A DNA stretch of 21,783 nucleotides from a virus, in UHGV virus genome UHGV-0017033. One strand, written 5' to 3'. Under the pieces are notes generated by a model that did not search any database, was not told the origin of the DNA, and saw nothing but the letters and a program-made list of their open reading frames with translations. Made by a program: the position numbers and the translations under genes. Positions within the stretch are counted from its first letter, which is position 1; each line of letters starts with the position of its first letter. Of this stretch, positions 3,131 to 21,783 are shown one piece after another.

Positions 3131-5296
3131 ATGGCCGACGAAAACAGACTCAATTCCATTCTGTGTAAGTTTGACGCAGACTGGATGGCGAGCGATGAAG
3201 CCAGAACCGAGGCGACAAATGACCTGTATTTTAGCCGAGTGTCGCAATGGGATGACTGGCTATCAAACTACACCACCCTGCAATATCGCGGACAATTCGA
3301 TGTTGTCCGCCCGGTTGTCAGGAAGTTGGTCGCAGAGATGCGCCGGAACCCTATCGACGTTCTCTTCCGACCAAAAGACGGTGCTAATCCTGATGCTGCC
3401 GATGTGCTGATGGGGATGTATCGTACTGATATGCGCCATAACACGGCAAAAATTGCCGTTAATGTTGGCGTTCGTGAGCAGATAGAGTCAGGCGTTGGTG
3501 CATGGCGTCTGGTCACGCAGTACGAAGACAACGACCCAACAAGCAACAATCAGGTAATCCGACGCCTGCCAATCCATGAAGCCTGCTCACACGTCATATG
3601 GGACGCCAACAGCAAGCAGATGGATAAGAGCGACGCTAAGCATTGCACGGTGATTAACGCTTTGTCACGCAATGGTTGGAAAGAGTTCGCAGAGGATTAC
3701 GGTATTGATCCGGACACCTTGCCATCTTTCCAGAATCCAAACGATACATGGCTGTTTCCGTGGGTATCAAATGATGTCGTCTACGTCGCTGAGTATTACG
3801 AGGTCGAAGAGAAGAAAGAGAAAGTCTTCATCTACCGCGACCCGCTGACAGGTGAGCCGGTCAGCTATTACCAGCAGGATATCAAAGACGTTATCGACGA
3901 CCTTGCTAATCGTGGATTCATTAAGGTAGCAGAGCGCAAGGTGAAGCGTCGGCGTGTGTATAAGTCGATCATCACCTGCACGCAGATACTGAAAGACCGC
4001 GAGAAGATAGCTGGAGAGCATATCCCAATCGTTCCAGTGTATGGCGAATGGTCATTCGCTGGTGACAAGGAGTGCTACGAAGGTGTAGTAAGGCTGACGA
4101 AAGACGGTCAACGCCTTCGTAACATGATCATGTCATTCAACGCCGATATTGTTGCTCGTTCACCGAAGAAGAAGCCGACCTTCTTCCCTGAGCAAATCGA
4201 AGGCTACGAATACATGTACGGTGGAAATGATGACTATCCGTACTATTTGCAGAACAAGACCGATGAAAACGGCAACGACCTGCCGATTGGTCCAATCTCC
4301 TACATGGAAAACCCTGAAGTGCCGCAAGCCAACGCTTACATGCTTGAGGCTGCCACCAACGCAGTGAAAGAGGTGGCTAGTCTTGGCGTGGATGCGCAGG
4401 CGGCAAATGGTCAGGTCGCTTTCGATACCGTCAATCAACTGAACATGCGGGCAGACCTTGAGACATACGTGTTTCAGGATAACCTGGCTACCGCAATGCG
4501 ACGTGATGGCGAGATTTATGCCTCAATGGTCAATGATATTTATGACGTTCCTCGTCATGTAACGCTGACACTTGAAGATGGAAGCGAGAAAGACGTTCAA
4601 CTCTATGCGCAAGTTGTCGATTACCAGTCCGGCAATGTGGTCACACTCAACGACATTCGCGGTCGCTATGAGTGCTATACAGACGTTGGACCATCCTTCC
4701 AGAGTATGAAGGAACAGAATCGCGCAGAGATTCAGGAGTTGCTAACAAAGGTTCCGCAAGGTACTCCAGAGTTCCAGATGCTGATGCTGCAATACTTCAC
4801 GCTGCTTGACGGTAAAGGCGTCGAGATGATGCGAGAGTACGCGAACAAGCAACTGGTGATGATGGGGCTGAAGAAACCAGAAACACCTGAAGAGATGGAG
4901 ATGGTACAGCAGGCTCAACAGCAGCCGCAGCAGCCATCAGCAGAGCAAATTCAGGCGCAGGGTATCCTTCTGCAAGGTCAGGCTGAATTGCTCAAGGCAG
5001 AGAACCAACAGGCGCAGATTCAGGTTGAAGCCGCCAAGGTTGAAGCTCAAAACCAACTCAACGCCGCGAAGATTGCAGAAATCTTCAACAATATGGACCT
5101 CGACAAGCAGGCAGAACTGCGTGAGTACCTCAAGCTCGTAGGTCAATTCCAGCAACAGCGCAGCAAAGACGCTCGCGCTAACGCTGAGCTGCTTCTTAAA
5201 GATGCAGACCAGACTCATTCACAACGCATGGATTTCGCGAATCTTATGCGTCAAGTTCAAATCCCCTCCGGCGGAGTAGCCGAGACACCTCAATAA
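3131..5296 (+). CDS. Portal protein (P22 gp1-like)
   Basis: 721-aa ORF; long stretches match my recollection of P22 portal ([53 protein letters not shown]-rich C-terminal barrel region). GGAGAA Shine-Dalgarno before the ATG. Confidence 0.93.
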
Positions 5297-6221: not shown

Positions 6222-6743
6222 TTATTTCGATATCGTGATGTTGTTTTCCTCGTCAAACTTTCTGATTACTTCTTTCGCCTCTTCGAATGAAGAACATACT
6301 TTTTGCACTCTTGCATTAAGCAGTCGCTTATGAGCGATCCATCTTTTCCGCGTGTTGCAAAAGTAAACTCCAGATATTCCGCTGGAGTTATTTTTAGATA
6401 GTTTGATTCTATTCCTTTGGTTTGCTGATTTTTTCACAAGACGAAGATTTTCAATTCTGTTGTCGTGGCGAATCCCATTTATATGGTCAATTTCCATGCC
6501 TTCTGGAATATCTCCGTTAAACATCACCCATACGATGCGGTGTGCTAGCCACTTAATGCCGTTAATTCTTATGCGGATATATCCATTGCTTTCTAAAAGA
6601 CCAGCAACTTTCCCAGCGTGTTTTGCATTCCAAACGTTGTGATAGTTGCGATTCTTTTTGTTGTTGAAAAATTCAGGGCTTCTGGCTTTCCAAACCAAAG
6701 AGCCATCGCGGTATTCGAAGTATTCATTCAGTTCCATGTTCAT
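6222..6743 (-). CDS. Free-standing HNH homing endonuclease with a C-terminal AP2-like DNA-binding region
   Basis: 173-aa minus-strand ORF filling the whole scaffold-coat intergenic space. HNH motif EIDHINGIRHDNRIENLRLV...NQRN, and a downstream SGISGVYFCNTRKRWIAHKR segment typical of AP2 domains paired with phage HNH enzymes. The DNA is visibly more AT-rich than the flanking capsid genes. Confidence 0.85.
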   Translation of the reverse strand: MNMELNEYFEYRDGSLVWKARSPEFFNNKKNRNYHNVWNAKHAGKVAGLLESNGYIRIRINGIKWLAHRIVWVMFNGDIPEGMEIDHINGIRHDNRIENLRLVKKSANQRNRIKLSKNNSSGISGVYFCNTRKRWIAHKRLLNARVQKVCSSFEEAKEVIRKFDEENNITISK

Positions 6744-6810
6744 AACCCTAATGCGCTATATGTTGATATAACAATAGTATAGCACATAAAGAAAGTAAGG
6801 TATTCAATAT

Positions 6811-8106
6811 ATGACTCTCAAAGAAGGGCAGTTAGTTACTTACGCTATCGATGAAATCATCGAAACCGTCCAGAACCTGACGCCAATGGCGTCCAAAGTG
6901 ACAAAATACACCCCTCCGGCAGAATCCATGCAACGTTCAAGCAACACCGTGTGGATGCCTGTTGAGCAGGAAGCGCCAACCCAGACTGGCTGGGATTTAA
7001 CTGGCAAAGCAACCGGGATTCTGGAGCTCTCCGTGAAATGCAACATGGGCGATCCGGATAACGATTTCTTCGAGCTTCGTGCAGATGACCTGCGTGATGA
7101 GCGTTCTTACCGTCGCCGCATCCAGGCATCCGCTAAAAAACTGGCGAATAACATTGAGTCAGCAATTGCCAAACAGGCAACTGAAATGGGCTCACTTGTT
7201 GTTCACGATACCCGCGCAATTGGTCCATCTACTGGCCTGTCTGGCTGGGATTTTGTGTCTGATGCAGAGCGCCTGATGTTCTCCCGTGAGCTAAACCGCG
7301 ATATGGGCATCAGTTACTTCCTGAACCCTGACGATTACCGCAAAGCAGGCCGCAACCTGGTAGATGGTGACATCTTCGGGCGCGTTCCTGAAGAAGCGTA
7401 TCGCAACGGTACTATTCAGCGTCAGATTGCTGGCTTTGATGAAATTCTTCGCTCACCGAAACTTCCGGCAGTTACCAAGTCAACCGTTACTGGTGTAACT
7501 GTTTCTGGTGCGCAGAAGTTTAAGCCGCAGGCATACACCCTTGATACCGATGGTAACAAAGAGAACGTCGACAACCGTGTTGCAACGGTGACCGTATCCT
7601 CCACCACCGGATTTAAGCGCGGCGACAAAATCAGTTTCACTGGTGTGAAATTCCTGTCTCAGATGGCGAAGAACGTGCTAACTGATGATGCGACTTTCTC
7701 AATCACCCGTGTGATCGATGGTACTCACATCGAAATCACGCCGAAACCGATTGCACTGGATGACGCGTCACTGACAAAAGAAGAGAAGGCTTACGCTAAC
7801 GTAAACACCTCTCTTGCTGATACCACTCCGGTAAACGTTCTGAACGTGGCAACAACCACCGCTAACGTGTTCTGGGCTGATGACTCAATCCGTCTGCTGT
7901 CTCAGCCGATCCCGGTAACCCATGAACTGTTTGCTGGCATGAAAACGTCTTCCTTCAGCATTCCTGGTATTGGTGTTAACGGCATCTTCGCAACGCAGGG
8001 TGATATCAACACTCTGTCTGGTAAGTGCCGTATTGCTGTGTGGTATTCAGCATGTGCTGTACGACCAGAGGCAATTGGTGTTGGTCTGCCTAATCAGACC
8101 GCGTGA
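6811..8106 (+). CDS. Major capsid (coat) protein (P22 gp5-like, HK97 fold with insertion domain)
   Basis: 431-aa ORF; near-colinear match to my recollection of P22 coat protein ([60 protein letters not shown]). AAGGT Shine-Dalgarno upstream. Confidence 0.93.
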
Positions 8107-8112
8107 TAACCA

Positions 8113-8137
8113 GAGGGAGCTTCGGCTCCCTTTTTAT
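8113..8137 (+). terminator. Intrinsic (rho-independent) terminator-like hairpin immediately after the coat gene
   Basis: GGGAGC-TTCG-GCTCCC perfect 6-bp GC-rich stem with TTCG tetraloop followed by TTTTTAT, 7 nt after the coat stop codon. Confidence 0.6.
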
Positions 8138-8149
8138 CTGGAGACAAGC

Positions 8150-8380
8150 ATGACACACATGGTCTTTCGTCATGGCGACATGAAGAAGTGGAAAGGCGTT
8201 GGATACGACTTTGAAATCGTGAAAGCCGAAGAGCTTCAGGAATATCTGGATGCTGGCTGGTTTGCACATCCTGATGATCTTCTGAAGGATGTTGCAGAGC
8301 CAGAGCCAGAAGAAAAACAGCGTAAAAAGCCTGGTCGAAAACCTAAGGCGGCAGTAGATGAACCTGACAACGAAGGGTGA
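8150..8380 (+). CDS. Small hypothetical protein between coat and gp4 (about 76 aa)
   Basis: ATG at 8150 preceded by GGAGAC; this is the in-frame internal start of track ORF 7970..8380, whose upstream part overlaps the coat gene. Lys/Pro-rich tail [19 protein letters not shown]22 has a small ORF at this position (recalled). Confidence 0.5.
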
Positions 8381-8858
8381 TTTAGTTCTTGCGGCATTAC
8401 GTAAGCTCGGTGTGGCATCAAATGCCACGTTAACCGATGTCGAACCGCAGTCTATGGAAGACGGCGTCAACGACCTTGAAATGATGATGGCTGAATGGCT
8501 TGGCGGTGATGTGTCACCTGGTATCAACGTTGGTTACATTTTCGCTGATGCAGATGTCGCTCCAGATCCGGGCGATGAGCACGGTTTATCAAATAACGCT
8601 ATCAATGCTGTCATTTTCAACCTTGCCTGCCGCATTGCACCGGATTATGCGCTGGAAGCGCCTGCAAAACTTATAACCACTGCCAGATACGGGAAAGAGC
8701 GACTCGTCAAACTGTCTGCAATGGACAGAGCAAAAGCCGCTAAATGTAAGCCCGGTTATCCAAACCGTATGCCTGTTGGTAGCGGTAACCAGTTGGCGAA
8801 GTGGAACGGTTGGAATTACTTCCACCGAAAGGAACCTTGCGATAACGGGAGCGAATAA
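8358..8858 (+). CDS. Head completion / tail accessory protein (P22 gp4-like)
   Basis: 166-aa ORF, same length as recalled for P22 gp4; motifs [28 protein letters not shown] and [14 protein letters not shown] resemble gp4; start overlaps the upstream small ORF. Confidence 0.85.
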
Positions 8859-10276
8859 TGCCTATTCAGCAACTTCCGCTTATGAAAGGTGTCGGCAAAG
8901 ACTTTAGAAACGCCGACTATATCGACTATCTGCCAGTGAATATGTTGGCTACACCCAAAGAAATCCTGAACAGCAGCGGATATCTTCGCTCATTCCCGGG
9001 CATTGCCAAACGTTCTGATGTGAACGGCGTATCGCGCGGCGTCGAGTACAACATGGTGCAGAGTGCTGTTTATCGCGTGTGTGGTGGCAAACTGTACAAA
9101 GGAGAAAGCGAGGTTGGTGATGTTGCCGGAAGTGGTCGCGTATCAATGGCGCATGGGCGGACATCACAGGCGGTAGGCGTTAATGGGCAACTGGTCGAGT
9201 ATCGCTATGATGGCACGGTTAAAACCGTCTCAAACTGGCCTACAGACAGCGGATTCACGCAGTATGAGTTAGGTTCGGTTCGTGACATTACGCGCTTACG
9301 TGGGCGTTATGCGTGGTCAAAAGACGGAACTGATTCATGGTTCATCACTGACCTTAAAGACGAATCACATCCTGACCGCTACAGCGCACAATATCGTGCC
9401 GAGTCTCAGCCTGACGGTATCATCGGCATCGGAACATGGCGAGACTTCATTGTCTGCTTTGGTTCATCGACGATTGAATATTTTTCCCTGACTGGTGCAA
9501 CCACCGTTGGTGCCGCTTTGTATGTCGCACAGCCATCACTGATGGTGCAGAAAGGTATTGCCGGGACTTACTGCAAAACGCCATTCGCTGATTCTTATGC
9601 GTTCATCAGCAATCCGGCAACAGGTGCGCCGTCTGTATATATCATCGGCTCCGGTCAGGTGTCACCAATCGCCAGCGCTAGCATTGAGAAAATTCTCCGC
9701 TCATACACTGCTGATGAACTGGCTGATGGTGTGATGGAATCGCTGCGATTTGATGCTCATGAGTTGCTGATTATCCACCTTCCGCGCCATGTTCTCGTGT
9801 ACGACGCATCTTCAAGCGCCAATGGTCCGCAATGGTGTGTGTTGAAAACTGGCCTGTATGACGATGTGTACCGCGCTATCGACTTCATTTACGAAGGCAA
9901 TCAGATAACGTGCGGCGATAAGCTGGAATCGGTGACCGGGAAATTGCAGTTCGACATCAGCAGCCAGTACGACAAGCAACAGGAACACCTGCTGTTTACT
10001 CCGTTGTTCAAAGCTGAGAACGCCAGATGTTTTGATCTGGAAGTTGAATCATCGACTGGTGTCGCTCAGTACGCTGACCGCCTGTTCCTCTCTGCAACCG
10101 CTGACGGCATCAACTGGGGACGTGAGCAGATGATTGAGCAGAATGAACCGTTCGTTTACGACAAACGCGTTTTGTGGAAGCGTGTCGGGCGAATCAGGAA
10201 AAATGTCGGCTTCAAATTGCGTGTTATCACGAAGTCACCTGTCACTCTGTCTGGCGCTCAGATAAGGATTGAGTAA
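8858..10276 (+). CDS. Tail accessory protein (P22 gp10-like)
   Basis: 472-aa ORF whose ATG overlaps the gp4 stop (ATAATG); length and position match P22 gene 10. Confidence 0.82.
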
Positions 10277-11124
10277 TGGCGGATTCGAATCTCAATGAGC
10301 CGGTAATCATTCAGGCTACACGACTCGACACATCAGTCCTTCCGCGTAATATCTTCTCGCAGTCATATCTGCTGTACGTTATTGCACAGGGTACTGATGT
10401 TGGTAATGTGGCTAACAAGGCCAACGAGGCCGGACAGGGCGCTTATGACGCACAAGTCAGGAACGATGAGCAGGATGTGATTCTGGTCGATCACGAAATT
10501 CGACTGGCATCAGCTGAAGCGAAGATTCAGGACCACGAAACAAGGATCACTAACGCAGAATCGGCGATAGTCGGCCTTGATTCCCGATTAACGACAGCAG
10601 AAAACGATATTGATTATCTGACTGATGAAGTTATCGCCATTCAAAACACGCTTTCAGACCATGAAACGCGCATTGATGCTCTGGAGTATGCCACTACTCG
10701 CAAAAAGTCAGAGGTTGTTTACTCTGGCGTATCTGTAACCATCCCGACAGCGCCGACCAACCTTGTTAGCCTGCTGAAAACGCTCACGCCGTCATCCGGG
10801 ACGTTGGCACCATTCTTCGACACTGTTAACAACAAGATGGTTGTGTTCAACGAGAACAAAACCTTGTTCTTCAAGCTGTCGATCGTCGGGACGTGGCCCA
10901 GCGGAACCGCCAACAGGTCAATGCAGCTAACCTTTTCCGGCTCTGTTCCTGACACGTTGGTCAGCAGTCGTAATGCGGCGACAACAACCGACAACATCCT
11001 GTTAGCTACGTTCTTCAGCGTGGATAAAGACGGCTTTCTTGCCACAAATGGCAGTACGTTAACCATTCAGTCAAATGGTGCGGCGTTTACTGCCACAACC
11101 ATCAAGATAATCGCGGAGCAGTAA
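10276..11124 (+). CDS. Tail needle protein (gp26-like) with extended C-terminal knob domain
   Basis: N-terminus [43 protein letters not shown] matches the gp26 plug region, followed by heptad repeats ([15 protein letters not shown]...). At 282 aa it is longer than P22 gp26 (about 233 aa as recalled), consistent with knobbed needles of Sf6/HK620-type phages. Confidence 0.8.
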
Positions 11125-11579
11125 TGATTCAGTTCAAACCAACGCGAAACATCGACCTGATCGAAGCAGTCGGAAATCACCCTGACATTATTGCCGGGAG
11201 CAACAACGGTGATGGATACGACTACAAACCTGATTGCCGTTACTTTGAGGTGAACGTGCACGGGCAGTTCGGCGGCATTGTTTACTATCAGGAGATTCAG
11301 CCGCTTACATTCGATTGCCACGCCATGTACCTGCCAGAGATTCGCGGATTCAGCAAGGAAATCGGGCTGGCGTTCTGGCGATACATTCTGACTAACACCA
11401 CCGTTCAGTGCATCACATCGTTCGCTGCACGCAAATTCCGCCACGGGCAGATGTACTGCGCAATGATTGGCCTTAAGCGTGTAGGGACCATCAAGAAATA
11501 CTTCAAAGGCGTGGATGACGTGACGTTTTACAGCGCCACACGCGAAGAACTAATCGACTTCCTGAATCACGGGAGATAG
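11124..11579 (+). CDS. gp14-like virion protein
   Basis: 151-aa ORF with start overlapping the needle stop (TAATG); positional equivalent of P22 gene 14 between needle and ejection-protein genes. Confidence 0.65.
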   Translation: MIQFKPTRNIDLIEAVGNHPDIIAGSNNGDGYDYKPDCRYFEVNVHGQFGGIVYYQEIQPLTFDCHAMYLPEIRGFSKEIGLAFWRYILTNTTVQCITSFAARKFRHGQMYCAMIGLKRVGTIKKYFKGVDDVTFYSATREELIDFLNHGR

Positions 11580-11581
11580 CT

Positions 11582-12274
11582 ATGTTATATGCATTTAAGC
11601 TGGGCAGAAAACTGCGCAGCGAGGAACCTTATTGTCCTGAAAAAGGCGGGAAAGGTGGCAGCTCTGATAAAAGCGCAAAGTATGCGGCAGAAGCTCAGAA
11701 GTATGCCGCAGACCTGCAAAATCAGCAGTTCAACACCATCATGAACAACCTGAAGCCGTTTACTCCTCTGGCTGATAAGTATGTCGGCAGCCTCGAGAAC
11801 TTATCGTCTCTGGAGGGGCAAGGTCAGGCGCTAAACCAGTATTACAACTCTCAGCAGTACAAAGATCTTGCTGGTCAGGCTCGCTATCAGATTCTGGCGG
11901 CAGCGGAAGCAACAGGTGGATTGGGTTCCACTGCAACCGGTAATCAGTTAGCAACAATCGCACCAACGCTTGGTCAGCAGTGGCTGTCTGGTCAGATGAA
12001 CAACTACCAGAATCTGGCAAACGTTGGGCTTGGTGCTCTGCAAGGTCAGGCAAACGCAGGGCAGACATATGCCAACAACATGAGTCAGATTTCGCAGCAA
12101 AGTGCGGCTCTTGCAGCGGCAAATGCCAACAGACCATCAGCAATGCAATCTGCTATTGGCGGAGGTGCGTCTGGTGCTATTGCTGGGGCTGGACTTGCGA
12201 AATTAATTGGTTCATCAACTCCGTGGGGTGCTGGTATCGGTGCTGGTCTTGGTCTGCTTGGCTCGTTGTTTTAA
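11582..12274 (+). CDS. Ejection (internal virion) protein, P22 gp7-like
   Basis: 230-aa ORF; Gln/Ala/Gly-rich with glycine-rich hydrophobic C-terminus GAGIGAGLGLLGSLF; position and length match P22 gene 7. Confidence 0.8.
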   Translation: MLYAFKLGRKLRSEEPYCPEKGGKGGSSDKSAKYAAEAQKYAADLQNQQFNTIMNNLKPFTPLADKYVGSLENLSSLEGQGQALNQYYNSQQYKDLAGQARYQILAAAEATGGLGSTATGNQLATIAPTLGQQWLSGQMNNYQNLANVGLGALQGQANAGQTYANNMSQISQQSAALAAANANRPSAMQSAIGGGASGAIAGAGLAKLIGSSTPWGAGIGAGLGLLGSLF

Positions 12275-12284
12275 GGGGTAATCA

Positions 12285-13649
12285 ATGGCTACGTGGCAAC
12301 AGGGTATTAATTCTGGTGGTTTTCTGGCTGGCATCGGTACGCAAAATGAGAATGCGCCAAAGGCAAGCGACATTAACGCAACGCTTGGTCTGATCCGCGA
12401 AAACAATGAACTGGCTCGCTCAGGTGCAAATAACGTTGGCCTGACCGCGTTACGTGGTCTGGCTGGAGTTGCTGATATTTACAATCAGGAACAGCAACAG
12501 AAAGCTATTAGTGCGTTCAATAAGGTTCACGCTGATGCATGGGCTTCTGGTGATCCATCGGGACTATTTAAGTTTGCCCAGGAAAATCCAGCGTTTGTTG
12601 CACAGGCACAACAGGCGTTTTCCGGTCTTAATGATCAGCAACGCAACGATATGGGCGATTTAGCCATGAGGGCTAACGTCGCTCTTTCTCAGGGACCGGA
12701 AGCCTACAGTAAATTCATTACTGATAACAAGGACAGGTTAAATCGCGTGGGGGCGAATGCTGACTGGATGATTCAGACAGGTATTCAGAATCCAGAGCAG
12801 CTATCACACATGCTGACTACTATGTCTCTCGGTGCACTTGGGCCAGAAAAGGCGTTTGCTGTTCAGGACAAGATGGCTGGTCGTGAAATTGACCGAGGCA
12901 GGCTGGCAGAGACAATCCGCAGCAATCAGGCTGGCGAGGCGCTAACAGCACGAGGTCAGAATATCACGATGCGCGGTCAGGATTTATCGATGCAGAGAGC
13001 ATCAATGAAAGGGGCGGTTGGGAATAATGAGCGTACAGTTCAGTTAGCAGATGGCAGAACTGTAACGGTAGGCGGGAAGCTTCACGGCGCTGGGGCTAAT
13101 GCGTTCTACGAAGGTATCGACAACGAGGGGAATATGGTTCGCGTTCCTGCTGGCTCTATTGCCGCTCCGGCTACATCGGCAGCAAGCGCGCAGAATTACG
13201 CAATGAAGAAAGATCTTGATGCAATTTCTGGTGCATCAATTGACGATCTTGGCTTCATGACTGGCATTACAGGCTCTTCAGGTTCTCCTGCTCTTGGTGC
13301 AGATATTCGTAGCCGTGCATCTGGTGGTGATCAGAGGAAACTATACAACGCTGCACAGCGAATCCAAGGAAAGATGCAGAATCAGGGCATTGCAGCAGCC
13401 AGAGACATGGGGGCATCCGGTATCAACACCGTTGCAGAAGCAAAGATGTATTTTCAAGGTATGCCACAGGTTGATTTCTCAAGCCCTGAAGCACTGCAAC
13501 AATCAATGCGCGACATTCAGCAATATACCGACAATTACAACCAACAATATAACGTTAATGTTGGTAAATCTCAGCGGCAGCAATCTCAACCTACACAGGT
13601 ATCACAGCCAGCAGCCAGCAGTAACTTTTCTTCACTATGGGGTGATTAA
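12285..13649 (+). CDS. Ejection (internal virion) protein, P22 gp20-like
   Basis: 454-aa ORF following the gp7 homologue; low-complexity Ala/Gln/Gly-rich composition typical of ejection proteins; positional match to P22 gene 20. Confidence 0.8.
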
Positions 13650-15808
13650 TGGCTAAAGCATGGAAAGATGTTATCGCCTCTCCACAGTATCAGGCGTTAA
13701 CTGAAGAACAGAAAGCACAGGCTCAAGCGCAATATTTTGATGAGGTTGTTGCCCCTAAGGCTGGTGACAAATGGGCTGAAGCAAGAGATCAGTTTTATGC
13801 AGCATACCCTCCGCCTCAGCAGCAGAAAGAAGAACCATCATTGATGCAACAAGCTGGTGATTGGCTCACAGGTGGTCAAAGTGCAGGGCAAATTGCAGAG
13901 CAGGCTGGTCGTGGTCTGGTAAACATACCATTCGACGTATTACAGGGCGGCGCAAGCCTGATTAATGCAATCAGCCAGGGGCTTGGTGGCCCCAAGGTTT
14001 TGGATGATGTTTATCGTCCAGTCGATCGACCGACAGACCCTTACGCGCAAGCCGGTGAAACAATTGGTGGGTATCTCCTGCCAATTGGCACAGCGGCAAA
14101 AGCTGCTGGAGCGCCAGCAAAGCTCGCTGAAAATATCGGTTCCGCAGGAAACATGATTGCAGGCTCTCTTGCTGATGCTGCAAATCAGGAGGGTGATTTT
14201 GCACAAAATGCTGCCATTAACGGTGGTATCAATATTGGTGCTCAAGGCGTTCTTTCAGGTGTCGGGCGCGTTATTGCGCCAAGGGTTTCACAGGCTCTTG
14301 GTGGTGCAGCACTGAATTCTGCTAATGATGTTTCCAGGATGGCAAAGTCAGGTGCTGGGCGTCAGTCAATTGCCAGTCAGGCCGCTAATGTGTCCGAAGA
14401 TGTAGCAAAAGCGGCTGAGTCTGCTGGAATTGATATAAACGCATTAACACCAGGAATGCGATCTGGAAGTCGTGGAATTGCACAAGCCGAAGGCGCATTG
14501 GCATCAACACCAGGGATTGTTCAGGATGCCCATCAGGCAGCATTTAACGAAATATCATCAAAGTTAAGTCGAAACCTTGATGAATTTGGGGCCGCATCTG
14601 GAACGGCATCAGAAAAAAGTGCGGCTATAAAACAAAGGATTCTTAAAAATCTTGATCAGATGAAGGATGCTGAGCGCGCGGCATGGGATGACGTGCGGTC
14701 AACAATGCCAAATCAAAAAGCAAGAATGCTAAATGGTAATGCCGTTATTCAGGCAGAGCGATCTGCTGGCATACCGCTTACTCCTGAAATGAAACAGTTT
14801 GTTCAGGCAAACAATCAAGGTGGAGTAACATTTGATGGCATGAAAGCATGGAGAGCGAAATTTGCTGATGCGGAGCAAAAATATAAGCGTAGCGGAGAGG
14901 CAAATGCGGCAAGGAGAGCAGGGGAAATACGTCGGGCAATTACTGATGATATGCGCACAATGGCGGAAAACGGCGGATTTTTTGATGACTGGCAAAAAGC
15001 TAATGATCTGTCTAAAGCGAGGCTATCCGCACAAGAGAGTGCAGAGTCTGTTTTTGGGCGTGATTTGGCAACAGATGCACTGATTACGAATGGAGTAAAA
15101 TCTCTTCAATCATCGTCAGCTAAAGGTCTTAATGGTCCTGCTGGATTCCATTCTATGATCCGCGCGCTGCCAGAATCAGAGCGTGTTCCTGCTATATCAT
15201 CAATGTTGCAGGATGCTATCTCGCATGGTGTACGTGGTGGCAAATCTGATGCAGCAGGAATTAACCATATCGCAGGGATACTTACACCACAAAATGTAAA
15301 AGCCATTAGCAGATATTCCTCAGAACTTGGAAGAATTGCTGATGCATATGGCACTCTTGCAAGAGCAGCAGTGAAACCTCAGCAGTATATTGAAAGAACA
15401 GGGAGAACTGCCAATGTACTACGCGATCTGGATGCTGGTTTATCCAACGTCACATCAACAGTGTTAAATGCAATTGCCAACTCAACATCAGGTGCCATTG
15501 TTGGTGGCGCTGGAGGGGGCATTGCAGGCGCTGCCGCGGGTGCTTTAGTTGGCGCCGGGTTAAAAGGCGCTGTATCTAAAATTGCCACCACACGTAGTGG
15601 TCGATATGCGATAGAGAAAGCTGTTCAGGAAGCCACCAAAGCAGTAAGAGCTGGCGGAAGTAAAGAAGCATTAGCGGCGGCGGAACGCAGATTTATGGCA
15701 AATAAAGCCGCCGTAAAAGCAATACGTGATGCAGTTGGAAACGAAGAGTTCAATCGCTTAGCGAGGGCTGGCATTGTAGCGTCGCTAAGCGGAATAGCAC
15801 AGGAGTAA
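13649..15808 (+). CDS. Ejection (internal virion) protein, P22 gp16-like, apparently extended
   Basis: 719-aa ORF, last gene of the late-operon block; Ala/Gly-rich with hydrophobic glycine-zipper-like segment [24 protein letters not shown] near the C-terminus; positional match to P22 gene 16. Confidence 0.8.
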
Positions 15809-16132
15809 TTAATCATCCATGGATGGATTGAGCTTATCTCGTGTTGATGTGGCGATTTGTCCTACATTCCTAATCCAAGATTTCAAATCCTTGATATTGT
15901 CATTGATTTCATGAATATCTTCTTTTTTTAGCCTGTTAATATTATTCTCAATAATTTCAATGGATTGCTCAATATCAGATATGGTGAATGATAGTTTGTT
16001 CTTCTCATCTTTTATTGAGTTTTTAAGTGCTTCGTTCTCAGTCTTGAGGTCAGATATCTTTTGTTTTAAAGATGCCAGTTGGTACTGAACCACAATGAGT
16101 GCGATAGCTATCACGATAACTGTTGTATACAC
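15809..16132 (-). CDS. Small membrane-anchored coiled-coil protein (moron; function unknown)
   Basis: 107-aa minus-strand ORF starting at GTG with a strong AAGGAGG Shine-Dalgarno 5 nt upstream. N-terminal transmembrane helix TTVIVIAIALIVV followed by a heptad-rich Lys/Glu/Asn/Ile segment. Lies in a strikingly AT-rich islet, tail-to-tail with gp16. Confidence 0.65.
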   Translation of the reverse strand: MYTTVIVIAIALIVVQYQLASLKQKISDLKTENEALKNSIKDEKNKLSFTISDIEQSIEIIENNINRLKKEDIHEINDNIKDLKSWIRNVGQIATSTRDKLNPSMDD

Positions 16133-16249
16133 ACCAACCTCCTTAGTTTTGAGCAGGATACCATGAAAAAAGTAAACATCTTTTGCCTACTTCACATTTG
16201 AATGGTTTGTCATTAGGATGTTTCCGGTTTTTTAAATATGGAAATTGAT

Positions 16250-16669
16250 ATGAAGAGGATTATTGGCGTCGTTGCTGGCGCTATATTGTTATCTGGGTGC
16301 GCAACTATTGTTGGTGACGAAACGCAGCTTGTGCAAGTGAACAGCAATCCTTCCGGTGCGAGCTTTAAGGTAAAAGACGAATCAGGCGTGATTGTTGCGC
16401 AAGGTAAGACCCCGCAAGGAGTAACTCTTGCCAAGTCAGATGGTAGTTATTTTGGCAAAAAGAGCTACCAGATCACTATGGAAAAGGATGGGTACGAACC
16501 AGTTACCCTGCCAATCAAAGCCAATGCTAATGGCTGGTATATTGGTGGAAACCTTGTGTTTGGTGGGTTAATTGGTTGGCTTGCTGTAGATCCTTTTAAT
16601 GGTGGGATGTATACCTTGAAGCCAAAAGAGGCAAACGCATCTCTTATACCATCAACAAAGCAAGACTAA
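16250..16669 (+). CDS. Putative outer-membrane lipoprotein with PEGA-like domain (moron; function unknown)
   Basis: Signal peptide MKRIIGVVAGAILLSGC with lipobox LSGC; NPSGASFKV...GKTPQGVTL...KDGYEP resembles a PEGA domain (recalled motif); Gly/Trp-rich C-terminal segment. An upstream in-frame ATG at 16238 is an alternative start. Followed by an intrinsic terminator. Confidence 0.7.
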   Translation: MKRIIGVVAGAILLSGCATIVGDETQLVQVNSNPSGASFKVKDESGVIVAQGKTPQGVTLAKSDGSYFGKKSYQITMEKDGYEPVTLPIKANANGWYIGGNLVFGGLIGWLAVDPFNGGMYTLKPKEANASLIPSTKQD

Positions 16670-16677
16670 TAAATAGG

Positions 16678-16700
16678 ACCCACCTTCAGGTGGGTTTTTT
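16678..16700 (+). terminator. Intrinsic terminator after the lipoprotein gene (overlaps the mnt 3' end)
   Basis: ACCCACC-TTCA-GGTGGGT perfect 7-bp stem followed by a T6 run, 9 nt after the lipoprotein stop. Confidence 0.65.
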
Positions 16701-16937
16701 GTACAAATCCTTCAGCGTATCAAACACCATCTTCTTAACAAGCTCTGACTGCTCATCAGCGAGTCGTTCTGCATCGTCGCGATATCCAGTCACAGGCGAT
16801 GGTTTTGATAGAGCATCTTGGACGATTTGTAACAACTCGGAGTTCATTGATCTCCCATTCGCCTCCGCCCTGAATTTTAATTTCTCCCTTACTTCCATAG
16901 GCATACGGAAGTTAAAGTGCGGATCATCTCTAGCCAT
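16686..16937 (-). CDS. mnt: Mnt repressor (ribbon-helix-helix)
   Basis: 83-aa translation MARDDPHFNFRMPMEVREKLKFRAEANGRSMNSELLQIVQDAL... matches my recollection of P22 Mnt almost residue for residue. Confidence 0.9.
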   Translation of the reverse strand: MARDDPHFNFRMPMEVREKLKFRAEANGRSMNSELLQIVQDALSKPSPVTGYRDDAERLADEQSELVKKMVFDTLKDLYKKPT

Positions 16938-16959
16938 GCCATCACTCCAAGTTAGTGTA

Positions 16960-16988
16960 TTGACATGATAGAAGCACTCTACTATATT
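16960..16988 (+). promoter_or_regulatory. Pant-like promoter (-35 TTGACA, -10 TATATT) overlapping the arc operator
   Basis: TTGACA at 16960-16965, 17-bp spacer, TATATT at 16983-16988, directly upstream of arc; matches the known P22 Pant arrangement in which Arc binds between -35 and -10. Confidence 0.55.
16965..16985. promoter_or_regulatory. Arc operator (O-arc)
   Basis: ATGATAGAAGCACTCTACTAT, the 21-bp arc operator sequence as I recall it from P22, located between mnt and arc. Confidence 0.7.
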
Positions 16989-16994
16989 CTCAAT

Positions 16995-17011
16995 AGGTCC
17001 ACGGTGGACCT
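16995..17011. promoter_or_regulatory. Mnt operator (O-mnt)
   Basis: AGGTCCACGGTGGACCT, a 17-bp palindrome symmetric about the central base, matching the P22 mnt operator as recalled; lies between the arc operator and the arc start codon. Confidence 0.75.
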
Positions 17012-17027
17012 ATATTGTGAGGTGAAT

Positions 17028-17189
17028 ATGAAAGGAATGAGCAAGATGCCGCAGTTCAATTTGCGGTGGCCTAAAGAAGTATTGGATTTGGTCCGCAAGG
17101 TGGCGGAAGAGAATGGTCGGTCTGTTAACTCTGAGATTTATCAGAGAGTAATGGAAAGCTTTAAGAAGGAAGGGCGCATTGGCGCGTAA
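17028..17189 (+). CDS. arc: Arc repressor (ribbon-helix-helix)
   Basis: 53-aa translation [53 protein letters not shown] matches P22 Arc as recalled (one conservative difference). The track ORF begins upstream at an ATG inside the operator; the true start is the in-frame ATG at 17028. Confidence 0.9.
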
Positions 17190-17262
17190 AGTTGAAGCCC
17201 CAACTGCGGGAACAGTCAGGGCTTCGGTTGTCAGTAAATCCGTGGAGAAAAACCAACATGAA
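17190..17262 (-). ncRNA. sar: Putative sar antisense RNA (small antirepressor-regulating RNA) in the arc-ant intercistronic region
   Basis: By analogy with P22, where a short antisense RNA is transcribed from the arc-ant spacer and pairs with the ant ribosome-binding site. The minus strand here contains inverted repeats GAAGCCC/GGGCTTC. Exact ends are not determinable from sequence alone. Confidence 0.4.
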
Positions 17263-18193
17263 TAGTATAGCAATTTTAGAAGCAGTGAACACCTCTTACG
17301 TACCATTCAACGGTCAGCAAATTATCACCGCCATGGCTGCCGGAGTTGCATATGTTGCGATGAAGCCAATCGTTGAAAACCTTGGAATGAGCTGGTCAAC
17401 GCAGCAAACAAAACTCATGAAGCAGATTAGCAAATTCAACTGTGTTCATATGAACATGGTTGCCGCTGATGGGAAGCTTCGTAAGCTACTCTGCCTTCCT
17501 TTGAAGGAGTTAAATGGATGGCTGTTCAGCATCAACCCTGAGAAAGTTCGTGCTGACATCCGTGATAAACTGATTCAGTACCAGGAGGAATGCTTTAGCG
17601 TGCTGCATGACTACTGGACTAAAGGCCATGTAGTTAACCCACGCAAAGCTAAAAAGGCGTTGCCGGGTAAAATCACCACTGAACAGCAGGAAGCCATAAA
17701 ACAACTCGTCATGAGTCGCGGTCAGTCTCTGCCAAAAGAAAAACAGGCTAAGGCGATGATCACCATGTGGTCGTCACTGAAATCCCATTTTGGATGTTCG
17801 TACAAAGAAATCAGTGAGGAGCAGTTTACCGAAGCACTATCACTTGCAGCTCGAGTTCCACTTGAAGGTGAGTTCATTGGAAAACAAGAGAAGAAAACCA
17901 ACGAGCTTTCTGCAAAAGAAGCAAACAGCCTTGTATGGTTATGGGATTATGCCAACCGCTCACAGGCATTATTCCGCGAACTGTATCCGGCGCTAAAACA
18001 AATTCAATCGAACTATTCCGGCAGATGCTACGACTACGGTCATGAATTCTCGTATGTTATCGGAATGGCGAGAGACGTTTTAATCAATCACACACGAGAT
18101 GTTGATATCAATGAGCCAGACGGACCAACGAATCTTTCCGCATGGATGAGACTTAAGAATAAAGAATTACCTCCTTCAGTACATAACTACTGA
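17258..18193 (+). CDS. ant: Antirepressor Ant
   Basis: Internal ATG at 17258 gives [33 protein letters not shown]..., matching the P22 Ant N-terminus as recalled; immediately downstream of arc as in immI. The track ORF extends upstream to 17192. Confidence 0.85.
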
Positions 18194-18211
18194 CAGATAA
18201 CCAACGCAACG

Positions 18212-18234
18212 ACCCAGCTTCGGCTGGGTTTTTT
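18212..18234 (+). terminator. Intrinsic terminator after ant
   Basis: CCCAGC-TTCG-GCTGGG perfect stem followed by a T7 run, 19 nt after the ant stop. Confidence 0.7.
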
Positions 18235-18293
18235 TATGCCCAAAATTCACCGTAGCCATGCTGCGGCGATTCCTTGTATCTGGAGCAAATTAA

Positions 18294-20297
18294 ATGACAG
18301 ACATTACAGCCAATGTTGTGGTAAGCATGCCTTCGCAACTCTTCACTATGGCTCGTTCTTTTAAAGCGGTTGCCAATGGCAAAATTTATATCGGTAAAAT
18401 TGACACTGACCCTGTAAATCCTGAAAACCAGATTCAGGTTTATGTGGAGAACGAAGACGGCTCTCACGTTCCTGTATCGCAACCAATCATCATTAACGCC
18501 GCTGGTTACCCTGTATATAACGGACAGATTGCCAAATTCGTAACTGTGCAAGGCCATTCTATGGCTGTTTATGATGCATATGGTGCGCAGCAGTTTTATT
18601 TTCCTAATGTGCTGAAGTATGATCCTGATCAGTTATCTATAAAACTATCAAGTAATATTGGATACAAATACATTGGAATGGTAGAGAGCGCTAACTCCCT
18701 TAAAGATATACAAGGAATGTCGATATCTGATAAATTATATTTAAAATCATACGTATCCGGACTCGAACTTGGTGGTGGGTTTGTTGTAGCTGTAGACAAG
18801 TCAATTGCAGTTGATAACGTAATGGTTTTAGAAGGTAACGGTGTAAATTGGAAGAGAATAAACCCAAGCCTTGAGTTTTCTGTATATGACGCTGGTTACA
18901 GCGGCGCTGGGGATATTGCATTATTTATTAATAAAATAAACTCTCTAGGTTATGATTGCGTTGTTCCATGTAGTGGAGAATTCTCGTCTTTAATTGATAT
19001 TGATTTCGCGAAGGGTGGGTTAAGAGGAACGAATAAATGCGTTTTAACTGAGATTAATGGGATATCAGGTGATTATGCAATTAGGTTAAGCAGCTCTAAT
19101 ATTTCTTATGATAATAGGGATGAAATAAATGCAACATCAATTTTAGATGGCATATCTTTTAAGATGCTAGGATCTAAAAAGATTTTACTTGGAGGTATTG
19201 GCGCTGGTGAATTATCAGAGTTAAGAATAAGTAATTCTTCATTCATATCATCTGCTGGAATTGAGTTTCTTGATAATTCATATAGAATTTTATTTGACAA
19301 GGTAACAATATCAAGATGTCTAAACAACACAATTATATTTAATTCTCCATCAAACTCAGGCGAGGTAATGACATTTAATAATTGTTGGGTTGTTGATAAT
19401 GGAGGTCCATTGACAATTAGAAATGGTCAATTTATTTTTAACTGTTGCTCTATGCCAGCAGGTAAGAAAGAAGGTTATTTTGATTCTACTGTTTTTATTG
19501 AAGATAACGCAACCGTTGTTTACTCAAGTGGAAATATTGAGTTTCAGCCAGGTCAAAGCTTTGTTGCGTTCTCTTCATCTGGAAGCACAAGAATAAGCAT
19601 TAAAGATACAACGCTACTTACTCCCTCTGGATATAGTTCAGTTCCGTTTGTTGTAAATGATGATTCAGTACTTTCATTAACAAATTGCTCATTGCCTTTA
19701 TTTGACCAAATGGATTTGGCGACAGGATCAGCAACTAGACAGGTAGTTGGAGGTAATAGTAAAAAAATAATGTCATATGGATGCTATCCACGATCTGGAT
19801 TTATAACAACTCAGTGGGATAAAGGGAACATAGTTAGTCCATACATAAATTCGCTATCAAATGGAAGTGGACAGTTTTTAAACTACTCTAACTGGAGCCT
19901 TCAACAAACTGGTTCAGGTGTTGTTACAGCAGGAACGGATTCTGATGTTCCAAATGATATTATGTTTTCCAGGTCTTTGTATGTAGCAATACCATCTATA
20001 GGAGCATCTGCAAAATTTTATCAGGAGTGCTCAGACTGCTCACCAGGACGATATTTCCAGTTAGGTTTTTGGGCTAAGAATCAAGTGACAACAATCTCTG
20101 GTATTGAGTTTTTTGATAAAGAAGGGAACTCTGTTCAGGGAAAAGCAACATTTACAATTCCACTAGGCTCCACATGGAATTTCTACGCATTAATAGATAT
20201 TGTTCCTCCTGGAGCAAGCAAAGTTAGGATTGATTTTGATGTTTCCGGTGAAGCAGGCTCTCTTCATTTGCATAATGTTATTTATGGGCTGATTTGA
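18294..20297 (+). CDS. Tailspike protein: conserved P22/Sf6-type head-binding N-terminal domain fused to a divergent, AT-rich receptor-binding body
   Basis: N-terminal ~112 aa ([43 protein letters not shown]...VLKYDPDQ) match the conserved head-binding domain of P22-like tailspikes. Beyond about nt 18630 the DNA becomes visibly AT-rich and the protein no longer resembles P22 gp9 as recalled. 667 aa. Confidence 0.85.
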
Positions 20298-20388
20298 AGA
20301 TTTCACATCTAATGTGACCAAACTTAGACAAAACAAAGCCTTGTCTGGATTGCAAAGCTTTGTACTATCCGATAGTGGTTAAGGTTGG

Positions 20389-21546
20389 TCACTCCACCTT
20401 TTCATCAATCCAATCCGCCCACCATTGCATCATTTCTCTGCGCTTTTCTAGATACTGAGCATGGTTGTAAATCCCACGCACAGATCCGCCGTTGGCATGT
20501 GCCAGTTGCACTTCAATAGCGTCAGCAGGCCATTCGTGCTCGTTCATAATTGTGCTGAATTCATGCCTGAATCCGTGACCGCTTTCCAGACCCTCATAGC
20601 CGATTTGTTTGATCACAAGTAGCACCGCGTTCTCGCAGATTGGCTTCTTCTTATCGTTGCGTCCGGCAAAAACAAACTCTGATACTGGTTTGGTGATGGA
20701 GCTTAGCGTAGTGAGAAGTTCAACCACCTGGTCTGACATCGGGACCACATGAATTTTGCGTCCCTTCATCACACTGGCGTCGATGGTGATAATCCTGTTT
20801 TCAAAATCGACGTTCTTCCATAGCATGGAACGAAGCTCTTTCGTTCTTAGGGCTGTGTAGCGTAAAACTTTGGTCGCAATGAGCGATACGATGCTTCCTG
20901 AAAATGTTGCCAGTGCTTTGTTGAATGCAGGGATCTGGTCTGCAGGAAGAAACGGGAAGTTCTTCTTGCGGTATCCTTTCATGGCGTCAGCAAGGTCAGG
21001 TGCCGGGTTATATTTAGCCCTGCCGGTGACAATAGCGTAACGGAAAACCTCGCCGCATCTTCTGCGGGCTTTATTGGCTCGTTCCATTGCACCGCGATCT
21101 TCAAATCTGCGGATTACTTCCAGCAGTTGCATCGGCTCAATATCCTGAATTTCAAGGCCGCCGATGATAGGTAAAATGTCGTCATCAAACATTTTTGCAA
21201 GTTCAGTCGCATACCCTACTGACCATACTTGCTTCTTGTGCTCGTACCATTCCTTGTAAATCGCACTAAAGGAATTGTTGTTAGACGAAGCCTTTTTCGC
21301 CTTTACCGGATCGATGCCAACCGAGATGTCTTTCCTCGCAGTCCATGCCTTATCCCTTGCCTCCTGCAAAGTCATTAGCGGATATTTTCCTACGGTCAGG
21401 ATTTTCTCCTTACCGTCAATCTTGTAGCGAAGCTGCCATACCTTTTTCCCGGATACAGGGACATAAAGGTACAGGCCATTACCATCGAGAAGGCGGTATG
21501 GTTTTTCTTTCGGCTTTGCTGCTTCAATCTGCTTAACGGTGAGCAT
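20389..21546 (-). CDS. int: Tyrosine site-specific integrase (argW-associated IntS/Sf6-type)
   Basis: Translation from the ATG at 21546 (MLTVKQIEAAKPKEKPYRLLDGNGLYLYVPVSGKKVWQLRY...) has an integrase N-terminal arm-binding domain and a C-terminal catalytic region with HGFRHEF and a downstream RGIY-type tyrosine motif. Same strand as, and directly downstream of, tRNA-Arg. The track ORF extends to a GTG at 21582. Confidence 0.9.
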   Translation of the reverse strand: MLTVKQIEAAKPKEKPYRLLDGNGLYLYVPVSGKKVWQLRYKIDGKEKILTVGKYPLMTLQEARDKAWTARKDISVGIDPVKAKKASSNNNSFSAIYKEWYEHKKQVWSVGYATELAKMFDDDILPIIGGLEIQDIEPMQLLEVIRRFEDRGAMERANKARRRCGEVFRYAIVTGRAKYNPAPDLADAMKGYRKKNFPFLPADQIPAFNKALATFSGSIVSLIATKVLRYTALRTKELRSMLWKNVDFENRIITIDASVMKGRKIHVVPMSDQVVELLTTLSSITKPVSEFVFAGRNDKKKPICENAVLLVIKQIGYEGLESGHGFRHEFSTIMNEHEWPADAIEVQLAHANGGSVRGIYNHAQYLEKRREMMQWWADWIDEKVE

Positions 21547-21707
21547 GGGTAAAAATCCGGTGGGTAAAATTATTTTATCCACTTTTTACCCGTCATGGAG
21601 TGCGGCTGTCAACGATCTGAAGCGAACCATGGCGAACTGTGAATCTACGGAAGGCTTGATATTAAGGGGATTTTGCGGACTGGTACGGATGGGAGCGAAC
21701 TGATAAA

Positions 21708-21782
21708 TGGTGTCCCCTGCAGGAATCGAACCTGCAATTAGCCCTTAGGAGGGGCTCGTTATATCCATTTAACTAAGAGGAC
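21708..21782 (-). tRNA. argW: tRNA-Arg (anticodon CCU), complete 75-nt gene with encoded CCA; argW-type phage attachment target
   Basis: Minus-strand sequence GTCCTCTTAGTTAAATGGATATAACGAGCCCCTCCTAAGGGCTAATTGCAGGTTCGATTCCTGCAGGGGACACCA folds as a cloverleaf (acceptor GTCCTCT/AGGGGAC, anticodon stem with CU-CCT-AA loop, T-loop GGTTCGATTCC) and matches E. coli argW as I recall it. Confidence 0.93.
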
Positions 21783-21783
21783 A

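Follow-up and report, generated by a model that had tools for sequence, protein, structure and literature searches.

Genes and regulatory sites of the module

Within the window, the whole 21,783-nucleotide stretch of DNA analysed here, a set of immunity genes lies after the last ejection-protein gene and before the tailspike gene, the expected place for the immI region of P22 (Table 1). The neighbour on the left is of gp16 type, the product of the ORF at 13649..15808 carrying PF26808 (Phage_P22_gp16; a precomputed Pfam match on an identical contig). The module consists of divergent mnt and arc–ant units with overlapping, face-to-face Pant and Pmnt promoters, the arrangement that marks a P22-type immI, and all three genes are intact ORFs that retain the DNA-contact residues of Mnt and Arc. 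The first-pass annotation had read the region as a P22-type immI that is complete and has its operators intact, and this identification is correct. In the alignment to P22 immI that it had proposed as a check, with promoters, operators and terminators taken from annotation BK000583, mnt, arc and ant are uninterrupted and the operators are not degenerate: Pant, Pmnt, Oarc and Omnt each agree with their annotated P22 counterparts at 0 mismatches, as had been claimed for both operators and the Pant-like promoter.

Table 1 Features of the immI module and its flanks, in window positions.
Feature	Position	Strand	Remarks
hkcB-like protein, 107 aa, coiled coil	15809..16132	-	PHROG 5962, 5.6e-58; epsilon34 gene 14 counterpart
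Predicted lipoprotein, 139 aa, moron	16250..16669	+	PHROG 6823, 6.8e-86; lipobox LLSGC; epsilon34 gene 15 counterpart
Hairpin common to the convergent lipoprotein gene and mnt	16678..16695		Overlaps mnt stop codon
mnt, 83-aa maintenance repressor	16686..16937	-	Uninterrupted ORF; ribbon-helix-helix N domain and C-terminal tetramerisation region
Pant, arc–ant operon promoter	16960..16988	+	TTGACA-17-TATATT; 11/12 consensus (scan)
Arc operator ATGATAGAAGCACTCTACTAT	16965..16985		21 bp, between Pant -35 and -10 hexamers
Pmnt	16965..16993	-	TTGAGA-17-TATCAT; 10/12 consensus (scan); divergent, overlaps Pant
Mnt operator	16989..17011		Just 3' of Pant -10 hexamer
arc, 53-aa ribbon-helix-helix repressor	17028..17189	+	First gene of ant operon; Pfam Arc (PF03869) 9.8e-31
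sar antisense RNA	17190..17257	-	Rfam RF00262, 95.6 bits (gathering score 43), E 1e-19, full length
ant, antirepressor, 311 aa	17258..18193	+	P22_AR_N aa 14-125; P22_AR_C aa 211-283
Psar	17264..17292	-	Inside ant 5' end; 28/29 versus annotated P22 Psar
ant central segment, aa ~124-205, 11 aa longer	17626..17860	+	Allele other than those of P22 and epsilon34
ant terminator (Tant)	18212..18235	+	Identical to P22 Tant; -14.5 kcal/mol hairpin, then T7
Tailspike head-binding domain, aa 1-113, conserved	18294..18632	+	Pfam Head_binding 2.8e-67
Tailspike receptor-binding body, swapped	18633..20297	+	CBA120 TSP4 (PDB 5W6H), E 1e-212 over aa 113-667

The three genes had been described as almost unchanged relative to P22, which holds for mnt and arc but not for ant, whose product is only 69% identical to P22 Ant overall and has 311 rather than 300 residues. 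Mnt is identical to its P22 counterpart at 81 of 83 positions (N54D and T82P, in a numbering that includes the initiator Met), conserves the contact residues R2, H6, N8 and R10 and matches both Arc (PF03869, 3.9e-30) and Repressor_Mnt (PF11423, 7.2e-19) in Pfam over the cut-offs. Arc matches at 52 of 53 positions and conserves Q9, N11 and R13; its single change, R16K, is also found in epsilon34 and in each E. coli relative examined. The sole promoter region 5' of arc–ant is the Pant/Pmnt region of P22, without a change. The core of the Mnt operator, AGGTCCAC-G-GTGGACCT at 16995..17011, has perfect inverted arms, and these arms reach 10 bp here because position 17012, the sole flanking difference from P22 at this operator, is A (G in P22).

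Complementary both to the ant ribosome-binding site and to the stretch between arc and ant, the sar RNA differs from that of P22 at 2 nt, one in the hairpin loop of the Rfam consensus and the other at a terminator-stem column, without a mismatch flag. The one mismatch in Psar falls in the -35 hexamer, where epsilon34 has the same base. Terminators had been noted on both sides of the module; the ant terminator is indeed that of P22, but the hairpin on the left is not P22 Tmnt, the mnt-side terminator, for which no match was found here. On the + strand this left hairpin is terminator-like (-14.5 kcal/mol, with a good T6 tail) and would terminate the convergent lipoprotein gene, whereas on the - strand it is weaker (-12 kcal/mol, with a weak T-run). 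In epsilon34 the same hairpin is annotated as a rho-independent terminator.

Borders of the module and its relatives

Like P22 immI (X01916, BK000583), the module lies between genes 16 and 9, and it has the same gene order and orientation; Pant, Pmnt, Oarc, Omnt and Tant match base for base. The two differ in other respects: no sieA or orf59a was found within the window and no hkcC lies upstream, the mnt-side terminator is another one, the spacer of ~110 bp, with repeats, that separates Tant from gene 9 in P22 is absent, the ~82-aa Ant centre is replaced and the tailspike body is unrelated. The tailspike gene begins at 18294, and its product resembles P22 gp9 only over the N-terminal ~150 aa, where identity is 62%. 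Its body has 35.4% GC and is 58–68% identical to tailspikes from phages that were isolated on O78 hosts.

On its left side the region agrees with the epsilon34 ‘ant moron’ (genes 14–18), with 98% nucleotide identity over 13829..17625, a stretch that begins in the ejection-protein gene (gene 13) and ends with the ant N domain. This stretch takes in the hkcB-like gene (33.6% GC), the lipoprotein gene, mnt, arc and sar; beyond it, the ant C domain and the tailspike head-binding domain are 92% identical. Both genomes also have the same hairpin terminator common to the convergent genes. The first-pass statement that both flanks are different is therefore true with respect to P22 only, as the left flank is that of epsilon34. 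Epsilon34 differs in having a P22-type Ant centre, 23/82 identical to the one here, and in tailspike body, host genus and integrase/att module; gtr genes lie 3' of its tailspike, whereas an IntS-type integrase and argW lie directly 3' of the tailspike here. We considered whether this integrase belongs to a separate island and rejected the idea, as E. coli F374 has the same argW–IntS–tailspike junction in a complete prophage whose opposite end carries a TorI-type excisionase.

The lipoprotein gene is convergent with mnt, has an alternative ATG at 16238 and a nearby promoter-like site at 16191..16219 (consensus scan), and is also present in E. coli O111 11128 and F374; its product has a weak PEGA domain match. 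Scanned against PADLOC and NCBIfam, both upstream morons gave coiled-coil noise only, with no defence system or named family. Upstream morons differ among relatives, with a Rap1a/Tai-family gene in USMARC-50748 and other hypothetical genes in Z1323HEC0422 and UPF_BP1, and tailspike bodies and integration sites likewise differ among E. coli P22-like prophages, UPF_BP1 and N7.

We compared the edges of homology with eight relatives (P22, epsilon34, UPF_BP1, N7 and four E. coli prophages). The right edge fell at 18602..18644 in all eight, which is the end of the tailspike head-binding domain, while the left edge varied (16678, 16711, 16717, 16756, 16900, 16130 or 13829) and forms a zone rather than a point, often within the 3' half of mnt; in epsilon34 and F374 homology extends 2.9 kb further left. 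The picture of a conserved cassette between recombination hotspots thus survives in outline, with qualifications as to its left edge and the integrity of the cassette, and the pattern is a published one: Villafane et al. 2008 (PMC2629481) described the ‘ant moron’ in ten types among sixteen genomes. The cassette is itself mosaic, with the centre of ant swapped and with the same Ant centre and C domain paired in N7 with an unrelated protein at the Mnt position, a 68-aa ribbon-helix-helix protein.

The whole module, including the 311-aa Ant, is found at 98.8–99.2% identity among P22-like prophages of E. coli (e.g., O111:H- 11128, F374, ETEC1749 and strain E3), which we compared together with phages UPF_BP1 and N7. 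Records of roughly 249 phages also carry immI. Copies in complete E. coli genomes, O111:H- 11128 among them, are 99.0–99.2% identical, and at least 80% of the module is present in 83 of 5426 such genomes, which together argue for purifying selection. In ETEC1749, ant is apparently annotated as two pieces, pointing to decay in some lineages; we counted this split gene and the change in the Psar -35 hexamer against the reading of the module as functional that we favour below. The closest complete relative is F374, which matches 13829..18634 at 97.5%, shares the argW/IntS junction and has cro, cII and a LexA-family repressor in a full prophage of ~39 kb. This copy of immI is therefore an ordinary one: the circuit has long been studied, and near-identical copies are already known from published phage and E. 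coli genomes.

Regulation and role of the module

We consider it highly probable, on the strength of these comparisons, that the P22 immI circuit is present here as a functional copy in an epsilon34-type arrangement, carried by a P22-like (Lederbergvirus-type) prophage at argW in an E. coli-type chromosome. If its parts operate as in P22, the paradigm from which we infer each step, Mnt made from Pmnt in a lysogen would bind the operator just 3' of the Pant -10 hexamer and keep arc–ant silent. After infection, Pant would fire briefly, Arc would bind the operator between the Pant hexamers and turn both promoters off, and sar RNA, transcribed from Psar within ant, would pair with the ant ribosome-binding site and limit translation. 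Any Ant produced would bind c2/cI-type repressors non-covalently and inactivate them. By the same analogy, the 311-aa Ant with its alternative centre would probably still target the resident repressor.

The presence of the module had been taken to mean that antirepressor, in addition to repressor cleavage, can drive induction of this prophage, and this we do not find supported. The immC region lies outside the window and also outside the 26.5-kb source contig (ENA metagenome contig ERZ27287145 k141_390837, 100% identical to the window over 7258..21783), which at ~4.7 kb longer than the window is too short to contain it, so that the prophage could be incomplete, a further point that we counted against the functional reading; as proxies for immC we used relatives, namely L008, N7, F374, UPF_BP1 and epsilon34. 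We know of no natural signal that relieves Mnt repression. In P22, Ant is dispensable for induction and for every lytic or lysogenic step (Lemire et al. 2011). Antirepressors do provide a true induction route in Gifsy phages, N15 and 186 (Tum), where a small protein likewise binds the immunity repressor non-covalently and takes it off the DNA, but those genes are under LexA and their proteins are unrelated to the P22_AR family, whereas ant here, by its likeness to P22, would be under Mnt, Arc and sar.

There is about an even chance that immI is carried mainly for roles other than induction of its own prophage, such as tuning lysogeny frequency at infection, modulating late read-through into the tailspike gene or crosstalk in trans with resident or superinfecting lambdoid repressors, in which case a second induction route would be the wrong reading. 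Besides its dispensability in P22, Ant acts on the repressors of L, lambda and 21, and coupling within polylysogens has been speculated on (Lemire et al. 2011); deletion of immI lowers lysogeny frequency (iScience 2024), and the ant moron may influence tailspike expression (Villafane 2008, PMC2629481). Among relatives, the same immI is found beside four or more immC repressors that are unrelated or only distantly related to one another, as would suit an effector of broad specificity. These arguments concern the role of the module and not its identity, and are compatible with a functional P22-type circuit; the sequence discriminates among none of the roles.

The Ant centre and the standing of the module

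The antirepressor itself is readily recognised by its Pfam domains (PF10547, 1.5e-44; PF10548, 5.5e-30) and by PHROG 245 (‘anti-repressor Ant’, 7.4e-98), but its likeness to P22 Ant is unevenly spread: 93/123 residues are identical in the N domain and 97/106 in the C domain, against 24/82 in the centre. Ant has been studied biochemically only in a form whose centre differs this strongly from that of the protein here, an observation that we also counted against the functional reading. Nucleotides ~17626..17860 did not align with either P22 or epsilon34, the two central segments gave no BLASTP alignment to each other at E <= 100, and no homologue of Ant with a solved structure was found by sequence. 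By eye, the two centres have a faint common helical pattern (A-x-A-M-I ... E-[IL]-x-x-x-Q), which leaves room for the possibility that they may be distant homologues. The allele occurs in E. coli prophages too: the centre is 100% identical in N7 and HZ41, 98% in UPF_BP1 and 97% in Ant proteins of Stx phages, with matches at 82/82 positions in N7 and Z1323HEC0422 and at 81/82 in UPF_BP1, O111 11128 and USMARC-50748. That the central allele tracks the type of immC repressor was considered and rejected in the five phages and prophages compared, a small sample.

A centre that cannot be aligned with those of P22 and epsilon34, and that reassorts as a unit (it is identical in N7 despite an N domain differing at 22/123 positions, and recurs in the Stx-phage proteins), could alter the range of repressors that Ant binds, or its regulation, giving a function distinct from that of P22 Ant. 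We regard this as unlikely: the Pfam domains on either side of the centre are both conserved, and P22-like c2 repressors are found with both central alleles, allele A in P22 and allele B, the one here, in N7, whose c2 is 92% identical to that of P22. Allele B is found, moreover, with 238-aa and 276-aa repressors, the former in F374, while the c2 of N7 type has 216 aa. Still less probable, in our judgement, is the fuller proposal that in ant, a three-part mosaic whose ~82-aa centre reassorts between P22-like and Stx-converting E. coli phages, this centre sets repressor specificity. Were it true, Stx-phage repressors or those of other lambdoid phages could be targets of this Ant in trans in polylysogens, and the induction of such phages, and hence toxin production, would be coupled to events at a P22-like prophage independently of SOS.

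That the module is a non-functional, decaying relic in a defective prophage, as a metagenome contig without an early region and the degraded ant or arc genes of HK620 and Scho1 (Villafane 2008, PMC2629481) might suggest, is very improbable: no damage is seen in any of the three ORFs, in both operators, three promoters, sar or the terminators, all late genes within the window are intact as well, and near-identical copies lie in complete prophages.

Taken as a functional P22-type immI, the module has little importance beyond its correct annotation, which is to be amended in three respects: the Ant allele differs from that of P22 in its swapped centre, the upstream neighbours are the epsilon34 set and not new, and possession of immI alone does not imply an Ant-driven induction route. 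For P22-like phages, the region adds one further clean example of recombination, which here has taken place within ant, near the 3' end of mnt and, in the tailspike, at the joint between its head-binding and receptor-binding parts.

Gene and regulatory content of immI

Every immI part is present and intact, and the module is a well-known system that the first-pass annotation had correctly identified. Three-way alignment of the window with the annotated regions of P22 (BK000583) and epsilon34 (EU570103) showed two of 83 residues changed relative to P22 in Mnt and one of 53 in Arc (R16K; K16 also occurs in epsilon34 and all E. coli relatives examined). The DNA-contact residues of both ribbon-helix-helix proteins (R2, H6, N8 and R10 in Mnt; Q9, N11 and R13 in Arc) are the same as in P22.

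We used every annotated P22 regulatory feature as a query against the window. The two divergent promoters, which were also the best sigma-70 matches of the region in a consensus scan, and both operators proved intact as in P22, as had been claimed, with no sign of operator degeneracy. An independent Rfam search recovered sar as RF00262 (95.6 bits; gathering score, 43); one of its changes relative to P22 lies in a hairpin loop of the Rfam consensus, and the other is aligned to the terminator-stem column without a mismatch flag. Terminators on both sides were confirmed in substance, the ant terminator being identical to that of P22, but the left one is a different terminator from that of P22: in the P22-feature search neither the mnt-side terminator nor the sieA promoter had a counterpart in the window. 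On the plus strand, the hairpin at the mnt stop codon would terminate the convergent lipoprotein gene. In P22 itself, the interval from the ant terminator to gene 9 is longer by ~110 bp that contain a repeat of AAAATTCACCGTAGCCATGCTGCGGC, which is single copy in the window (18236..18293) and in epsilon34.

Features of the immI module and its upstream genes
Feature	Coordinates	Strand	Observation
hkcB-like coiled-coil protein gene		-	107 aa; epsilon34 gene 14
Lipoprotein gene		+	139 aa; epsilon34 gene 15
Hairpin	16678..16695		Overlaps mnt stop codon; T6 follows on plus strand, weaker T-run on minus
mnt	16686..16937	-	83 aa, uninterrupted (ORF listing and direct reading)
Pant	16960..16988	+	0 mismatches to P22
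Pmnt	16993..16965	-	0 mismatches to P22
Arc operator	16965..16985		0 mismatches to P22
Mnt operator	16989..17011		0 mismatches to P22
arc	17028..17189	+	53 aa, uninterrupted (ORF listing and direct reading)
sar RNA	17188..17257 (P22-feature search); 17257..17190 (Rfam)	-	2 mismatches to P22
Psar	17292..17264	-	1 mismatch to P22, in -35 hexamer; same change in epsilon34
ant	ATG 17258 to 18193	+	311 aa, uninterrupted
ant terminator	18212..18235	+	0 mismatches to P22

An exchanged central segment in Ant

While mnt and arc are almost unchanged relative to P22, as the annotation had stated for all three genes, ant is not: its product is 69% identical to the P22 protein and exceeds its 300 aa in length. 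(An extension of ant to TTG 17192 by the ORF lister was rejected, since ATG 17258 aligns with the P22 ant start.) Identity to the window Ant is 93/123 for P22 and 121/123 for epsilon34 in the N domain, 24/82 and 23/82 in the centre, and 97/106 and 106/106 in the C domain. Nucleotides ~17626..17860 gave no DNA-level alignment to either phage, and a BLASTP comparison between the two central segments found no match. The swapped segment falls between two conserved Pfam domains, P22_AR_N (aa 14-125) and P22_AR_C (aa 211-283).

The alternative centre was already known from other phages: Escherichia phages N7 and HZ41 carry it at 100% identity, Salmonella phage UPF_BP1 at 98% and many Stx-converting phages, in their Ant proteins, at 97%. 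E. coli prophage copies have the same type of centre. Of 5426 complete E. coli genomes, 83 hold at least 80% of the module length; in several the copy is 99.0-99.2% identical (e.g., O111:H- 11128). In addition, 249 phage records match the module.

Cassette edges and prophage context

We mapped homology end-points around the module against eight comparators (P22, epsilon34, UPF_BP1, N7 and four E. coli prophages). In all eight, the right edge coincided with the end of the tailspike head-binding domain (18602..18644). The left edge varied, from 13829 (epsilon34 and F374) and 16130 (O111 11128) to 16678 (P22), positions inside the 3' half of mnt (16711, 16717 and 16756) and 16900 (N7); the left junction is a zone, not a point. 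The proposed conserved cassette between recombination hotspots thus does have variable neighbours, but its left edge is diffuse, the cassette is itself mosaic, and the pattern is already published: Villafane et al. 2008 (PMC2629481) described this region as the "ant moron" and read ten moron types in sixteen P22-like genomes as high genetic flux. The flanks differ from those of P22, and the whole window lacks homologues of SieA and Orf59a, but the left flank is that of epsilon34 (genes 14 and 15), which matches at 98% from 13829 to 17625.

Phage N7 (14931..16429) has an Ant with this centre and C domain and an almost unchanged Arc, and its Mnt position holds an unrelated 68-aa ribbon-helix-helix protein, indicating that the immI maintenance repressor is itself exchangeable. 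In E. coli USMARC-50748 (3141..3727), a gene of the Rap1a/Tai family (type VI effector immunity-like) lies directly downstream of mnt, overlapping it in the same orientation, and Pmnt may co-transcribe it in the lysogen.

The late operon of the window is of P22 type, with genes for terminase, portal, scaffold, coat, gp4, gp10, needle and ejection proteins. Over 7258..21783 the window is identical to an ENA metagenome contig (ERZ27287145 k141_390837) that is 26.5 kb long. Downstream of the tailspike gene, a convergent IntS-type tyrosine integrase gene (20389..21782, minus strand) adjoins tRNA-Arg(CCT), argW. In the closest complete relative, E. coli F374 (84% of the window matched at 97.1%), one end of a ~39-kb prophage shows the same argW-IntS-tailspike junction; the gene for a TorI-type excisionase lies at the opposite end, which places integrase and excisionase genes on different sides of the att site. 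Unlike P22, epsilon34 and O111 11128, the window has no O-antigen-modification genes between tailspike and integrase. The tailspike receptor-binding body (18633..20297, aa 113-667; 35% GC) matches CBA120 TSP4 (PDB 5W6H, E 1e-212) and is 58-68% identical to tailspikes of the O78-host phages ECOO78, ep3 and EC1-UPM, which points to an O78-like or related O antigen as receptor.

Separately, a 574-bp AT-rich insert (6222..6796, 38.5% GC) fills the exact interval from the scaffold stop codon to the coat ATG and carries a minus-strand 173-aa HNH homing-endonuclease ORF (PHROG 99, 3.7e-50; PADLOC HEase). A close relative (L008) lacks it, its scaffold TAA overlapping the coat ATG. Ahead of the coat gene the insert restores a sequence resembling an RBS, and the adjacent first coat codons differ. 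Of 5426 E. coli genomes, 20 have the same insert.

Accompanying repressors and the probable operation of the module

The annotation had further proposed that the antirepressor offers a route to prophage induction besides repressor cleavage. This goes beyond the evidence, as immC is in neither the window nor its 26.5-kb contig. According to Lemire et al. 2011, P22 Ant is dispensable for induction and for every lytic or lysogenic step, and its targets range widely, taking in the P22 C2, L, lambda and 21 repressors. Among relatives, immI of the window type accompanies at least four different repressors: a 216-aa c2 92% identical to that of P22 (N7 and L008), a 238-aa LexA-family protein (F374), a 276-aa repressor (UPF_BP1) and epsilon34 gp46. 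P22-like c2 was found with both Ant central alleles in this small sample, which argues against a tight allele-repressor link. Besides immI Ant, F374 carries in the nin region another antirepressor-like gene (26267..26989), which has a KilAC domain and is unrelated to ant.

Deletion of immI lowers the frequency of lysogeny (2024 study, PMC11016777). Given its identity with P22, from which we infer the activity of the individual parts, the module most likely operates as it does in that phage: Mnt would repress Pant in the lysogen, a burst at infection would be followed by Arc shutting off Pant and Pmnt, and Ant, its translation limited by sar, would bind and inactivate c2-type repressors.
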